Assembly: GCA_965228475.1 (NCBI GenBank)
Contig: OZ245817.1
Location: 672,001 to 736,000 of the forward strand
Source: Myxococcota bacterium
GTDB taxonomy: Bacteria > Myxococcota_A > UBA9160 > JAFDDA01
Direction of reading: 5' to 3'
Length of the DNA: 64,000 bases
Shown here piece after piece: positions 29,892 to 35,800 of this stretch (position 1 is the first letter of the stretch; each line of letters opens with the position of its first letter). The position numbers are program-made.

Positions 29892-32800
29892 TGCAGGTTC
29901 GAGTCCTGCCGCCCCAACCATCAGGAAGACCGAACGATGCAGCAGCTCAAGCTCTTTGCCGGGAACTCGAACCCGGATCTCGCCCGCGCCATCGCGCGCG
30001 AGCTGGGCCAGGAGCTCGGCCACGCCGAAGTGACCCGCTTCAGCGACGGCGAGATCAGCGTCGAGATCGGCGACAACGTGCGCGGCATGGACTGCTTCGT
30101 CCTGCAGAGCACCTCGACGCCGGCCAACCGCCACCTGATGGAGCTGCTGATCATGACGGACGCGCTGCGCCGCGCGTCCGCCCGCCGCATCACCGCGGTG
30201 GTTCCCTACTACGGCTATTCGCGGCAGGATCGGAAGGTCTCGCCGCGCGCGCCCATCACCGCCAAGCTCGTTGCGGACCTCCTGACGGCGGCGGGCATCT
30301 CGCGCGTGCTGTGCCTCGACCTCCACGCGGGCCAGATCCAGGGCTTCTTCAACATCCCCGTCGACAACCTCTACGCGCGGCCGATCCTGCTCGACGCGAT
30401 CGGCCGGCGCTTCCCGCAGGACGTCACGATCGTCTCGCCGGATGCCGGCGGCGTGGAGCGCGCCCGCGCCTACGCGAAGCGGCTCGACGCCCCGCTGGCG
30501 ATCATCGACAAGCGGCGGGAGCGGGCGAACGTCTCCGAGGTCATGCACGTGATCGGCGAAGTCGGCGACCGCAACTGCGTGCTGGTCGACGACATGGTCG
30601 ACACCGCCGGCACCCTGGCCCAGGCGGCGACGGCCCTCTCGAAGGAAGGCGCGCGCTCCGTGGTCGCGGCCATCACCCACCCGGTGCTCTCGGGGCCGGC
30701 CATCAAGCGCCTCGACGAGTCGCCCCTCGAGAAGCTCATCACCACCGATTCGATCCCCCTTCGCGACGACGCGAAGGAGTCTCAGAAGATCGAGGTCGTC
30801 TCCACCGCCAAGCTGCTGGCGGAGTCGATCCGGCGCATCAACAACGAAGAGAGCGTGAGCTCGCTCTTCGCCTGATCTTTCGAGTCGGCCGAGCCGACCC
30901 CAGGAGAACACCGTGTCCGATACCACCATCGAAGTCGAAGCCCGCGAGGGCGTGGGCAAGGGCGTCGCCCGCAAGCTGCGCGCCGCCGGGAAGATCCCCG
31001 CCGTGTTCTACGGCGGCGGCCGGGAGGCCGTGCCGGTCTCCCTCGACCCCGCGCGCCTGCAGAAGGTGCTCCATGCCAGCGAGACCGGGCTGAACACGCT
31101 GCTCGACCTCGCGGGTTCGGGCAACGCCGCCGTCGACGGCAAGACCGCGATGGTGCGCGAGCTCCAGCGCGACCCGATCAAGGGCACCTTCATCCATGCG
31201 GACCTCTACGAAGTCGACCTCAGCCAGAAGATCGAGGTCGAGGTCCCGCTCCACGTGACGGGGAAGGCCATCGGCGTCGAGAACGGCGGCGTGCTCGACC
31301 AGGCGCTGCGCGAGCTCGAGATCAAGTGTCTGCCCCGGGCCATCCCGGACGAGATCTCGGTCGACGTGACGAGCCTCGACATGGGCGACAACCTCCACGT
31401 GCGCGACATCGAGCTGCCGGACGGCGTCGAGCTGATCTCCGACGGCGACCTCTCGGTCGTGTCGGTCGTCGCGCCGGTGAAGGAAGAGGACCTCGTCGCC
31501 GACACGGGCGAAGAGGCCGACGCCGCAGCCGCCGCGCCGGACGCGGAAGCCGAGGGCGATGCCCCGGCCGCCGCCGAGGGCGAGGGAGAGAAGAAGGACG
31601 GCGAGTAGCATCGCCCGCCCCGACGTTCGCGTGCCCACGCCGTCCGCCCCGGCTTCGTCGTGGCCCGAGCGCGCGCGATGAAGGTGGTGGTCGGTCTCGG
31701 GAACCCCGGCGAGCGCTACGCCGCGACGCGCCACAACGCGGGTTTCTGGGTCCTCGACCGCCTCGCCGCGGCGCACGGCCTCGCCTTCGAGGCCCATGCG
31801 GACGCCCACGTCGCCCGTGGGCAGCTGCCCGACGGCTCCCCGTACGCCCTGGTCAAGCCCTGGACCTTCATGAACCGCTCCGGGGGGCCGGCGGCCGGCT
31901 GGTTCGAGGCGCTCGGGGCCGGGGACCCGGCGGTCGACCTGCTCGTCGTCTACGACGACCTCGATCTCCCGCCCGGCCAGCTACGGCTGCGCAAGAAGGG
32001 CGGCCACGGCGGCCACAACGGCCTTCGCGACGTCATCGCGGCCTTCGACGCCCGCGTCTTCCCCCGGCTCCGGTTCGGCATCGGGCGCCCGGACCCAGGC
32101 GTGAGCGTCCTCGACCACGTCCTCACGCTCTTCCCCGCCGCGGACCTGCCCGCGATCGAAGCCAGCGTCGACCGCGCGTCCGAGGCCGTGACCGTCTTCC
32201 TCGCCGAAGGCATGGACGCGGCGATGAACCGCTTCAACGCAAACCCGGAGCCGGCGGTGAAGGGTTCCCCCGGCGCCGGCGCGGGCCGGGCCTCCGAGGA
32301 AGAACCCGCTATAAAGTCGGCTACTTCGGCAGACGATTCAGCCACCATGGCGAGTCCGATCCGCGAACCCTCGAACCCGGAAGAACACTCCGGGCCCGAT
32401 GACCGGGAAGCAACCAACGTCTACGATGCTGGCAACGTCCACGATGCTGGGGATGGGACACCCGGAATGAGCCTCGCCGCGCCGGGCGCTGCGCAGCCGA
32501 AGCTGGCCGAGCGCATCGCGCGGCCCTTCGTCCAATTCATGCAGCTCGAGACCGGCAGCGCCGTCCTGCTGCTGGTGATGTCGGGCGTCGCGCTCGCCTG
32601 GGCCAACTCGCCCTGGGCCGAGAGCTACGAACACCTGCTCCACGAGCCCGTGGCGTTCTCCTTCGGGACGCATGCGCTCTCGCTCTCCGTCCACCATTGG
32701 ATCAACGACGGACTGATGGCGATCTTCTTCTTCCTGGTCGGGATGGAGATCAAGCGCGAGATGGTCATGGGCGACCTCTCGACGCCGACGCGCGCCATGA

Positions 32801-35800
32801 TGCCGGTTCTCGCCGCGCTCGGCGGGATGGTCGTCCCGGCGGGCGTCTACGCGTTCCTGCTCTGGGGAGACCCGGCCGTCAAGGGCTGGGGGATCCCGAT
32901 GGCGACGGACATCGCCTTCGCGGTCGCCGCGATGTCGGTGCTCGGCAAGCGCGTACCCCCCTCGCTGAAGGTCTTCCTGCTCGCCCTCGCCATCGCCGAC
33001 GACCTCGGCGCCGTCATGGTGATCGCCGTCTTCTACACGGACACCATCCACGTGGGCGCGCTCGCTTGGGCGTTCGGCTTCCTCGCCATGATCTTCGGCA
33101 TGAACCGGGCCGGCGTCCGCGCGTTCCTCCCCTACTGGGTGGTCGGCGCGGTCGTCTGGTTCTTCATGCACGAGTCCGGCGTCCACGCCACGATCGCCGG
33201 CGTGGCGCTCGGCCTGCTCACGCCGGCCCACCCGGACCCGCACCGGCAGAACAGCCTCGTCGAGCGCGGGCGGGATGCCCTCGATCACCTGCGGGAGTGG
33301 GTCACGCGCGACCACGAAGACCACGGCGGGCACAAGCGTCACCACGCCGTGCTGACGCTCCAGGACGCCTCGCGCGATTCCCTCTCGCCCCTCGACTACC
33401 TGACGAACCGCCTCGAACGCCCGGTCCTCTTCGTGGTGATGCCGCTGTTCGCGCTCGCGAACGCCGGCGTCGCCCTCGAGACGGAGACGCTCGGGAACCC
33501 GGTCTCGCGCCAGGTCGCCGTGGCCGTGATCGCCGGCCTCGTGCTCGGCAAGCCGATCGGGATCACCGTCTTCAGCTGGATCGCGGTGCGGCTCAAGCTC
33601 GCGGAGATGCCGCGCGGCGTGAACTTCGCCGCCATCTTCGCCACCGGCATGCTCGCCGGCATCGGCTTCACGGTGGCCCTCTTCATCGCCGCGCTGTCCT
33701 TCGACGATGCCGCCATCACGGCCGGCGCGAAGGTGGGCATCCTGATCGGTTCGGTGCTCGCGTGCGTGATCGGCCTGGCCGTGTTGGCGCGCGCGCTGCC
33801 CGCCGAGCCCCAGAGCTAGCGGCCGCAGCCGCGCCCCAGCTCTGTTGACCGCCGCTGCGCGCTAGAGCGATTGACCGCCGCTGCGCGCTAGCGCCGCCAG
33901 CGGACGTAGCCCCGCATCCCCGCGATCAGCACGACCGTCCCGAAGCCCGCCCAGTGGGTTCCGGCTTCGGCGACGCGTCCGCCGTAGGAGACCAGGTAGA
34001 TCGCCCAGATGTACCAGCCTCCCAGCAGGTGGAGCCGCTTCCAGTTGCGCCCGAGGGCGCGAACGGCCGCGTCGTTCGAGGTGGCCGTCATCGCGGCGGC
34101 GAGCACGAAGCCGAAGCCGCCGAGCAGGTTCGAGACGTCCGGGTCGAGGGTGCGTTCCGTTCCGGCCATGACGGCAACGACGGCCGCCATGTGGATCATC
34201 TGCGAGACGCCGTAGGCAATGCCGACCGCGCGGCGGTTGCGCAGCAGCGTCCGGCTCACCGGGCTCCGCCAGAGCGCGTACAGGGACGAGGCGGCGAAGG
34301 CCAGGGCGAAGGGCACGAAGGCGATGCGTGCCGTGAAGCGCGCCGCCCGGTTCAGGCCGAGCTCCCCCGAGCCGAAGGCCAGCAGGGCGTAGGCCACGGC
34401 CAGGACCGAGACGGTGCCCGCGAGCACCGGCGCCCAGGGCAGCCAGGCGATCCGGTTCGCCCCTTTCGTCGAGGCCAGGCGGGCGGAGGCGTCTTGCTGG
34501 GTGGTCATGGAGAACTCCCGGGCGCCTGGCGACCCTACCGCTCCCGGGCCGATTTCGGCAAATCCCGACAAAATGTCCGGTCAAAAGGGGGTCAATAGGC
34601 CAGGATCTGCACGAATTGTGCGGATTGAAGCCTCTTTGTCCCCGGATTATCCTGCCCGCTCATGGAGTTCTCGATCGAGCGCAGATCCGTTTCCGGGCTG
34701 CCGGTCTACCGGCAGATCGCCGACCAGATCCGCAGGGCCGTCGTCGCCGGCGCGCTCGTGCGCGGCGACCGCCTGCCGACGATCCGGGCCCTCGCGGAAG
34801 AGCTCGGGGTGAACCGCGACACGGTCTCCCTCGCCTACGACACCCTCGCCCAGAACGGCGTGATCGAGTCCACCGTCGGGCGCGGGACCTTCGTCGCCGA
34901 TCCGCCGGCCGTCGAATCCGAGCTGCCCGAGCCGCTCGGCGCGCCGCCGCCGCTCTCGCCGCTCGTCGACCGCCTGCTCGAGTTCGGCCGCACGCGGCCG
35001 AGCTACGCCTCCGGCGGCGGTGCGGTGCCGATGCATTCCCTGATCCCCGACCCGACGCTGTATCCCGTCGACGCCTTCCGCCGCTCGATGAACCGCGCGC
35101 TCGCCGAGGGCGGCTCGGACCTGCTCGTCTACGGCGGGCCGGACGGTCACGAGGGGCTGCGCGGCGTCATCGCCGAGCGCCTTCGCACCGAGGGCATCGA
35201 GGCCGCGAACGACGAGAACGTGATCCTGACCCAGGGCGCGAGCCAGGGCATCTCGCTCGCGCTGCGGCTGTTCGCCGCGCCCGGCGATTGGGTCGCCGTC
35301 GAAGAGCCGACGTATCACAACCTGCTCGCGGTGCTCGTCGGGCTGGGGCTCCGGCCGACGCCCGTTCCCATGACGCCCGAGGGGCCGGACCTCGAAGTGC
35401 TCTCGCGCGTGCTCGCCCGGCCCGAGGTGAAGGCCTTCTACACGATGCCGAGCTTCCACAACCCGATGGGGACGACGACGAGCCTCGCCCACCGCCGGCG
35501 CCTGCTCGACGTCGCGGCCCGGCGCGGCAAGCCCGTCGTGGAAGACGCCTTCGAGATGGACCTGCGCTTCGCCGGCCGCCCGGTGCCGCCGCTCGCCGCC
35601 CTCGACGACCACGGCCTCGTCGTGCACCTCTTCTCCTTCTCGAAGTCGCTCTTCCCGGGCGTGCGCGTCGGCTCCGTGATGGCGCGCGGCCGCGCCCTCG
35701 AGGGCCTGCGGGCCCTCAAGCGAACGATCGACCTCTCGGGCGCGCCGGTGCTCCAGGCCGCGGTGGCGGACTTCGTCGCCAGCGGCGCCTACGACCGGCA

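Follow-up and report, generated by a model that had tools for sequence, protein, structure and literature searches.

How does an essential translation quality-control enzyme, as a rule soluble, come to be encoded, apparently, solely as the cytoplasmic head of a polytopic transporter, and why has such a gene been kept? The window, by which we mean the whole 64,000-nucleotide stretch of Myxococcota DNA under analysis, poses this question in the form of a natural experiment. In it, as the preliminary description stated, peptidyl-tRNA hydrolase (Pth) and the Na+/H+ antiporter NhaA share a single open frame with no stop codon inside (Table 1); a GTG at 31660 is an alternative upstream start that would extend the product to 719 aa. 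The frame is genuine and does not stem from an assembly error. Contigs assembled from three public runs of two studies, one of the runs being a possible source of the assembly itself, cover 31600-32754 or more and show neither a difference nor a gap, and this largely disposes of the single-base error that had been conceded for the pth stop. None of the runs listed for this sequence is recorded as RNA. The claim that pth is the sole copy is likewise borne out, as is that of a second nhaA gene: the 5.0-Mb single-contig genome (96% complete) yields one Pth1 match and two NhaA matches, and a search of it for PTH2 (PF01981) found none. With no other Pth1 or PTH2 and no stop after the Pth domain, the Pth activity of the cell should come from a membrane-tethered form. 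Pth should hence be made in this form only, unless the linker is cleaved, and its membrane location is a prediction from sequence.

Table 1. Features of the pth-nhaA locus (window coordinates)
Feature	Position	Strand	Residues	Basis or remark
ispE-like gene	28849-29790			Context, upstream of prs
prs	29937-30875			Context; gene order ispE-like, prs, ctc, pth-nhaA
Ribosomal protein L25/Ctc gene (ctc)	30913..31608	+		Directly upstream of pth-nhaA
Fused pth-nhaA ORF	31678..33819	+	713 aa	Stop TAG; 0 internal stops
Pth1 domain	31678..32238	+	1-187	Pfam PF01195, TIGR00447, PDB Pth chains, AF2, GC3
Linker	32239..32520	+	188-281 (94 aa)	Acidic and rich in Ala/Pro/Gly; predicted to be disordered; apparently a former pth-nhaA intergenic spacer
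-10-like hexamer TAAAGT (TANAGT)	32312..32317	+		Candidate promoter element for nhaA; translated in the fusion as Ile-Lys-Ser
In-frame ATG	32347..32349	+	M224	Heads MASPIREP; possible long NhaA start; motif read from the sequences
18-bp tandem duplication	32415..32450	+		Two in-frame copies, NVYDAG/NVHDAG
In-frame ATG	32467..32469	+	M264	Apparent conserved ancestral nhaA start codon; nhaA GC3 signal starts here
NhaA core	32521..33816	+	282-713	PF06965, TIGR00773, solved NhaA chains

The domain limits first described for the two halves hold. Pfam Pept_tRNA_hydro (PF01195) matches residues 3-187 over model positions 1-183 of 183 (E 1.6e-55; 188.3 bits against 27), the NCBIfam equivalog pth (TIGR00447) reaches 165.9 bits, above its cut-off of 100, and Pth chains in the PDB align across residues 1-187, a region with AF2 pLDDT values of 71-93 and a GC3 of 0.95. 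The protein of the window carries the motifs GNPG, RHN (with the catalytic His), MNRSG, DD.D and GHNG, which we take to map to N10, H20, N68, D93 and N114 of E. coli Pth. The first two occur in all 13 rows of alignment A1 that have an N-terminus and the other three are invariant, or nearly so, in that alignment. The N-terminal half is thus a full-length Pth1 match with its catalytic motifs kept, and peptidyl-tRNA hydrolysis is its predicted activity. As for the C-terminal half, Na_H_antiport_1 (PF06965) matches residues 286-703, with 2-374 of the 374 model positions covered (E 1.3e-146; 488.8 bits), and the equivalog NhaA (TIGR00773) reaches 403.8 bits, its cut-off being 254. Solved NhaA chains can be aligned with this half from their residue 7 to the end. 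The motifs ATDIAF, ADDLG and GKP are invariant in A1, and so are the ion-binding residues D411, D441, D442 and K625, which coincide with these motifs in solved NhaA and presumably equal D133, D163/D164 and K300 of the E. coli protein. An AF2 model of the whole protein was good for Pth and poor, with low confidence, for NhaA because the input alignment had just 15 rows, and it serves here solely to show disorder in the linker. The N-terminus of E. coli NhaA is cytoplasmic; by this topology, and by homology from E. coli NhaA residue 7 onwards, the same would be expected here, and the simplest reading by analogy is a cytoplasmic Pth tethered at the N-terminus of NhaA.

Between the two domains, the linker looks like the old spacer between pth and nhaA. 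Its GC content by codon position (0.72/0.61/0.72, against a GC3 of 0.95-0.96 in the domains of this genome) lacks the pattern of the flanking domains, and the same holds for GC3 in all three fused DNAs at hand, from this genome (G000), from its congener G007 and from the metagenome locus L034 (linker 0.72-0.82, domains 0.88-0.96). AF2 gives pLDDT values of 26-35 and no secondary structure over residues 191-275. Linker length ranges from 33 to 94 aa across 19 fusions, and the 18-bp duplication is specific to this genome, being a gap in all other rows of A1. The linker also holds a -10-like TANAGT box in common with unfused relatives and retains the ancestral nhaA start Met, and these features, together with the missing codon-position pattern, are what point to a former spacer. 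Of 24 spacers, 10 carry the box on the coding strand (G000, G007 and eight unfused loci) and none on the opposite one; shuffled sequences give a mean of 0.78, and the 43.5 kb of coding DNA that flanks the spacers contains no copy. Locus L197 has it as well. Its conservation is therefore far above chance and confined to the coding strand. No -35 element was identified, and a strict sigma-70 scan for paired -35 and -10 hexamers at 16-18 nt spacing found no promoter in 31400-34000.

At the protein level, the site of the box reads [VIL][QKE][SC] in 15 of 19 fusions, a tally made by eye from the protein alignment, with underlying DNA from G000 (ATA AAG TCG) and G007 (GTA CAG TCG) only. This is the exact residue set that nTA-nAG-TSn can encode. 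The promoter would thus persist as a peptide motif whose variants are dictated by the codon table instead of by the chemistry of the residues, a DNA-level reading drawn mostly from protein patterns, the fused DNAs being three. Past the box, two methionines are candidate starts for a free NhaA. M264 stands where unfused NhaA proteins begin; 18 of the 19 fusions have a Met 10-20 residues ahead of the RPF anchor, and GC3 climbs from 0.70 to 0.85-0.95 at this codon. No clear Shine-Dalgarno sequence is seen before M264 when the sequence is read. A heading similar to that of M224, MA(A)EP(I/L)RP, follows the box in unfused relatives and in the fusions P0067 and P0257, and M224 is the weaker candidate because its Met is missing in P0002 and P0003. 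Two terminator-like sites were found where 0.8 were expected, none of them between the Pth domain and M264. Since the linker keeps both the -10-like box and the start Met of nhaA, a free NhaA is probably still made from these internal signals, as had been allowed for at the outset.

Other signals considered for the linker were rejected. The nhaA-I motif is, we assume, a cation-sensing riboswitch upstream of nhaA; the idea that the linker holds such a switch or some other leader structure was discarded, with no relevant Rfam match at E <= 10 in 31400-32800 and a fold z of -1.34, which is not significant, and in 20 related loci tRNAs alone passed the Rfam gathering score. A programmed frameshift to an out-of-frame stop was also set aside, for the +1-frame TGA at 32258 in G000 has no comparable stop in G007 and is thus not conserved.

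The preliminary description held that pth-nhaA adjacency runs through the order, and it is indeed widespread: of 33 non-self loci in the order, 25 have pth immediately upstream of their best NhaA orthologue. The two genes are nonetheless separate in 24 of these 25, as they had been said to be in G040, G021 and G033. A search of 193 genomes of the order, 40 of which gave a match at E <= 1e-120, found the fusion in G000 and G007 only, with four new loci unfused or without an adjacent pth. G007, of the same genus, has the same single frame, interrupted by a contig end, as reported. The claim of one open frame in G042 (L013) and G034 (L026) did not stand: stop codons separate the genes in both (stop-to-stop lengths of 201 + 458 aa and 196 + 494 aa), and the 675 and 764 aa previously quoted are spans across both genes when these lie in a shared frame.

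Metagenomes supply further cases. Among 66 long proteins matching residues 1-285, 14 more join Pth to NhaA, a set found through long, Pth-bearing proteins and hence subject to an ascertainment bias that ranking by closest NhaA partly offsets: of the 14 nearest NhaA relatives (72-83% identity) 13 are fused, as opposed to five of the other 105 matches listed. A scan of metagenome DNA with conserved NhaA motifs recovered at least one fused locus (L034), and the genome scan returned, as further fused DNA, only the record of G007 again (L117); another long match, L159, is not a Pth fusion. The fusion is seen in this bacterium and in a small set of relatives, all of them uncultured. The sources that name these fused proteins label them NhaA only, and such genomes can therefore appear to be without pth.

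Trees of the two domains, both built in quick mode and from relatives that are not independent observations, agree on a fused clade. In the NhaA tree (76 rows), a clade with SH-aLRT 100 comprises 16 fused rows plus P0217 and P0218; in the Pth tree (80 rows), 12 fused rows make up an all-fused clade (support 99) with subclades matching those of the NhaA tree. At least three more fused lineages lie outside the main clade, which puts the origins of the fusion among relatives of the order, on the NhaA tree, at four or more. One well-supported clade in both trees, plus these further lineages, means that the fusion is ancient and has been retained. It does recur, as first proposed, and is inherited through a clade, on the evidence of metagenome proteins and trees and not on that of G042 and G034. 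Consistently, no short Pth protein (30-391 aa) exceeds 198 bits or 55% identity to the Pth of the window, while the fused P0002 is 64% identical; within the fused clade, Pth diverges down to about 50% identity. The frame is kept in 15 of 17 distinct clade sequences, with many length differences, all multiples of three. P0217 and P0218/G016 sit within the clade and yet are unfused, so the fused frame can be lost. In G016, of the same family, pth reads on for about 60 aa, across the linker motif of the fusions, until the frame shifts, which looks like the secondary break of a fused ancestor.

The explanation that we favor, with a probability of roughly 70%, is that of a genuine, vertically inherited fusion with a spacer-derived linker, two products and a selected frame. 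In the ancestor, pth and nhaA would have been same-strand neighbors, as in much of the order, until the pth stop codon was lost and translation ran on, in frame, through a spacer of about 150-280 nt into nhaA. The product would be a cytoplasmic Pth1 joined by a disordered linker of 33-94 aa to the N-terminus of NhaA, made from the operon transcript, and NhaA alone would be made from the internal promoter and start. The fused frame appears to be under purifying selection, for it stays open through many in-frame length changes across the clade, and the likeliest reason is that a break would harm the expression of one partner, rather than any cooperation between the two activities.

A different account would have Pth anchored to NhaA because their functions are linked, through membrane-bound ribosomes or through Na+ or pH state. 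The sole, essential Pth would then work only as an NhaA-anchored domain, and selection would keep the fusion since location or coupling matters; Pth might, for instance, clear peptidyl-tRNA dropped by ribosomes inserting membrane proteins, or its access or activity might be governed by the ionic or pH conditions that NhaA senses. The persistence of the fusion through Pth divergence, its repeated origin and the common adjacency of the genes are all in keeping with this idea, but we consider it unlikely. The linker has the composition of an unfused spacer and bears nhaA's own expression signals, which fits an accident of neighborhood and of high GC, where stop codons are few. Adjacent genes in the order mostly stay separate, and in metagenome gene calls Pth is fused in frame to other downstream neighbors too (Mur-ligase-like, Mfd N-terminal, S6 and L25), mostly in clusters of one or two members. 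In the parts of the literature available, moreover, peptidyl-tRNA hydrolase and NhaA were paired just in a survey of sigma-factor promoters in E. coli, which was taken to be unrelated, and no biochemical link between them was found. The functional tie of peptidyl-tRNA recycling to Na+/H+ homeostasis, as originally put forward, is thus without support, nothing found here pointing to coupling.

Should the chain instead act as a polyprotein, a protease would cut the linker and free a soluble Pth. A long, disordered and accessible linker (AF2) with a barely constrained sequence would suit such cleavage; since no conserved cleavage motif is evident and the sole conserved linker features fit DNA-level signals, we hold this to be improbable. 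Much the same low credence goes to unselected read-through, a neutral accident in GC-rich DNA that has persisted by chance. The G007 linker is open in all three frames, and in G015 a single TGA splits in-frame pth and nhaA, so that fusions are one mutation away; against this, neutral indels would mostly break the frame that nearly all distinct clade sequences keep. The loss of the pth stop through an assembly or base-calling error, conceivable in principle given homopolymer errors in a single-contig assembly and the +1-frame TGA noted above, can practically be dismissed in view of the identical, indel-free contigs and of the same architecture in G007 and 13 other metagenome proteins of the clade.

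An inherited fusion with a spacer-derived linker would offer a clear example of how fusions are born, a stop being lost in GC-rich DNA and the frame reading through a downstream promoter and start codon. That an apparently tethered Pth has lasted through long divergence suggests, in addition, that Pth function tolerates membrane tethering. The first half resembles stand-alone Pth1 (E. coli Pth, PDB 2pth; TIGR00447) in its full-length equivalog match, its alignment to solved chains over residues 1-187, its motifs and the prs-ctc(L25)-pth order, the usual operon context; unlike it, the fused gene has no pth stop, runs into a linker and a 12-helix transporter, and encodes no soluble form. Similarly, the second half shares with E. 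coli NhaA (PDB 1zcd, 4au5, 7a0w; TIGR00773) the equivalog match and the conserved ATDIAF, DD pair and GKP, and departs from it in a 281-aa N-terminal extension (Pth plus linker) and in a His-rich insert of about 50 aa (residues 519-568), where the E. coli chain runs from 240 to 245. The eukaryotic counterpart is Pth2 (human PTRH2/Bit1, yeast Pth2), a membrane-held peptidyl-tRNA hydrolase whose catalytic domain faces the cytosol; its fold (PTH2, PF01981) is unrelated to Pth1, and it is anchored on mitochondria by one N-terminal helix. Both enzymes would be membrane-held, as predicted here for Pth-NhaA, but the anchor in our case is a transporter and the PTH2 fold was not found. Literature matches listed for peptidyl-tRNA hydrolase, gene fusion and membrane, in the parts available, included no bacterial Pth-transporter fusion. 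The other fusions of Pth to its neighbors are likewise in-frame mergers with an adjacent gene, whereas Pth-NhaA forms a diverged clade backed by the trees of both its domains.

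The pth and nhaA genes of the genome studied here form one open reading frame, in which both domains are intact and the catalytic motifs conserved. Residues 3-187 of the product cover the whole Pfam model Pept_tRNA_hydro (PF01195, E 1.6e-55) and residues 286-703 match Na_H_antiport_1 (PF06965, E 1.3e-146), while the NCBIfam equivalogs for pth and NhaA score 165.9 bits against a cut-off of 100 and 403.8 bits against a cut-off of 254, respectively. Residues 1-187 align with solved Pth chains, and solved NhaA chains align to the fusion from their own residue 7 through to the end; each half is a typical representative of its family. 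Upstream lie an ispE-like kinase, prs and L25/Ctc, the usual neighbourhood of pth. The genome (5,006,157 bases in one contig, 96% complete) holds a single Pth1 match and two copies of NhaA, and a search of it for PTH2 found none. In reporting a single open pth-nhaA frame with both domains, a sole Pth and two NhaA, the preliminary description was right at its core.

Features of the pth-nhaA locus, in window coordinates
Feature	Position	Strand	Remark
Alternative start GTG	31660		adds 6 codons to the fused ORF
Fused pth-nhaA ORF	31678..33819	+	713 codons, TAG stop
-10-like box TAAAGT	32312-32317	+	TANAGT match
MASPIREP, M224	ATG at 32347	+	variant of MA(A)EP(I/L)RP
Tandem duplication, 18 bp	32415-32450		in frame, within the linker
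M264, conserved linker Met	ATG at 32467	+	
NhaA insert, ~50 aa	33232-33381		aa 519-568; rich in His and charged residues (…HEDHGGHKRHH…)
ORF directly 3' of nhaA, 240 aa	33862-34584	-	opposite strand; no Pfam match at E <= 0.01

The same description had raised the concern that the open frame might reflect an assembly error at the pth stop. Contigs from three public sequencing runs, belonging to two studies, match this stretch exactly, and no insertions or deletions relative to it are listed in them: a single contig of run X1 spans 31600-33000 with 0 differences and 0 gaps, contigs of X2 match 31600-32754 and 32731-33000, and a contig of X3 matches 31600-32703. The assembly may itself derive from one of these runs, but the other study is independent, which makes such an error very unlikely.

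Within the order, adjacency is far more frequent than fusion. Of the 33 non-self loci examined for the best orthologue of NhaA, in a sample of 121 genomes and then in the full set of 193, pth lies directly 5' of nhaA on the same strand in 25 but not in the other 8, and a single frame was found only in G007, a genome of the same genus. Three further fusions had been proposed, in G007, G042 and G034; the first stands, but the other two have real stops, with a TGA seven codons past the Pth match and then a TAG in G042 (locus L013), and a TGA three codons past the match in G034 (L026). Stop to stop, the pth and nhaA frames measure 201 and 458 aa in L013, and 196 and 494 aa in L026. The open-frame lengths of 675, 764, 702 and 690 aa tabulated for L013, L026, L005 and L019 are spans over both genes with real stops between them, a type of figure that appears to arise where pth and nhaA share a frame, and it is the first two of these figures that misled the earlier reading. 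In G015 (L005) the two genes are in frame and separated by a single TGA, one substitution away from fusion. In G016, the third genome of the family, pth runs on for about 60 codons through the linker motif of the fusions (GRQPVKSPK) before reaching a stop, and nhaA follows in a different frame, which looks like the secondary break of a fused ancestor, or like poor assembly. The nhaA gene also has an internal stop in G016 (L114) and a mid-gene frame shift in G083 (L115); these defects may represent pseudogenes or assembly errors, both genomes being fragmented MAGs.

A search with residues 1-285 among metagenome proteins of 392-1248 aa returned 66 matches; apart from the query, 14 of these contain PF01195 together with PF06965. 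A ranking of relatives on residues 264-713, the NhaA part, puts fusions at 13 of the first 14 places listed (72-83% identity), the exception being P0217, and fusions make up 5 of the remaining 105 listed. In the NhaA tree (76 rows), a clade with an SH-aLRT of 100 comprises 16 fused rows, one of them (P0006) identical in sequence to the gene of G007, together with P0217 and P0218, the protein of G016. In the Pth tree (80 rows), 12 fused rows group together with no unfused row among them (support 99) and divide into the same subclades; P0013 and G016 have long branches without support. The best match to the Pth half among short proteins (30-391 aa) reaches 198 bits, at 52-55% identity, and the fused P0002, at 64%, is closer than every one of them. 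The frame is kept in 15 of the 17 distinct sequences of the fused clade. From the ranking, the concordant trees, the absence of a close short Pth and the break in G016, we infer that the fusion is old and that both halves have been inherited together; on this sequence evidence, the Pth-NhaA fusion is genuine and conserved across a clade. Three further fused lineages (P0257 with P0067, P0232 and P0231) fall outside the main clade in the NhaA tree, and the fusion in P0067 and P0257 is best read as of separate origin; neither tree places these two proteins clearly near their G015 counterpart. The sources label the fused proteins 'NhaA' only. Metagenome gene calls also join Pth, as one protein, to Mur-ligase-like domains (PF02875/PF08245; about 10 clusters, some with 8-12 members), as well as to the Mfd/UvrB-interaction domain (PF17757), ribosomal S6 (PF01250), L25 (PF01386) and YchF (PF06071).

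The linker retains the character of an intergenic spacer. In the genome studied here GC3, about 0.95 in either domain, drops to 0.55-0.70 over residues ~196-262 and climbs again exactly at M264; across three fused DNAs (this genome, G007 and the metagenome locus L034) it is 0.72-0.82 in the linker versus 0.88-0.96 in the domains, linker GC1 is roughly equal to GC3, and linker composition resembles that of the spacers of unfused relatives (GC 0.61-0.81). AF2 assigns pLDDT values of 71-93 to Pth and of 26-35, without secondary structure, to residues 194-275. Fusion linkers range from 33 to 94 aa, the one described here being the longest; their sequences, in which Ala, Pro, Gly and Arg abound, align poorly. 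A Met located 10-20 residues ahead of the RPF anchor is nonetheless conserved in 18 of 19 fusions, at the position where unfused NhaA proteins start. No Rfam family matches the linker, and its RNA fold is unremarkable.

A second conserved element is the hexamer TANAGT. Of 24 spacers, 10 (this genome, G007 and eight unfused loci) have a single copy on the coding strand, and none has a copy on the opposite strand; the mean in shuffled spacers is 0.78, the maximum 5, and 43.5 kb of flanking coding DNA contain none. The L197 spacer carries it as well. At this site, 15 of 19 fusions, read by eye from the alignment, encode [V/I/L][Q/K/E][S/C], the exact residue set of nTA-nAG-TSn, with charges mixed freely, and the two DNAs examined, from this genome and G007, spell it with rare codons (ATA AAG TCG and GTA CAG TCG, respectively). 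Such a pattern is better explained by a constraint on the DNA than by one on the peptide, the simplest candidate being a -10 promoter element of nhaA. A strict two-hexamer promoter scan of the locus found nothing. In unfused relatives the box is followed by the motif MA(A)EP(I/L)RP, which also occurs in P0067 and P0257; P0002 and P0003 lack its Met. In four unfused loci (L014, L016, L020 and L024), a TAnnnT box with GC just ahead of it falls within the final pth codons, only some 30-50 nt 5' of the nhaA start; the candidate nhaA promoter already overlaps the pth coding sequence there.

Ribosomes initiating at the pth ATG would cross the former spacer and produce a Pth-linker-NhaA chain. In E. 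coli NhaA the N-terminus faces the cytoplasm, so by analogy Pth would be a cytoplasmic domain held by a flexible tether. The survival of both the -10-like box and the start Met suggests that NhaA is also produced on its own; free Pth would not be obtainable by translation, leaving cleavage of the linker as the only route. That the frame has persisted through many changes in length makes it likely that its disruption does harm, most simply because one partner would no longer be properly expressed or because Pth would acquire a damaging out-of-frame tail. Such fusions form easily where GC is high and stop codons are therefore scarce, and where the two genes lie on one strand and, as in some relatives, also in one frame. 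An adaptive, obligatorily membrane-bound Pth seems improbable, and the functional tie between peptidyl-tRNA recycling and Na+/H+ exchange put forward earlier is unsupported, nothing found here indicating such a link.

The fused NhaA also departs from its solved E. coli-type homologues, which pass from residue 240 to 245 where it bears the ~50-aa insert. All members of the fused clade but P0048 conserve this insert, which could form a cytoplasmic loop that senses pH or metals. The listings returned by full-text literature searches contained no Pth + NhaA combination. Membrane-anchored peptidyl-tRNA hydrolases do exist in eukaryotes (Pth2/PTRH2), but these differ from Pth-NhaA in having another fold and another kind of anchor.
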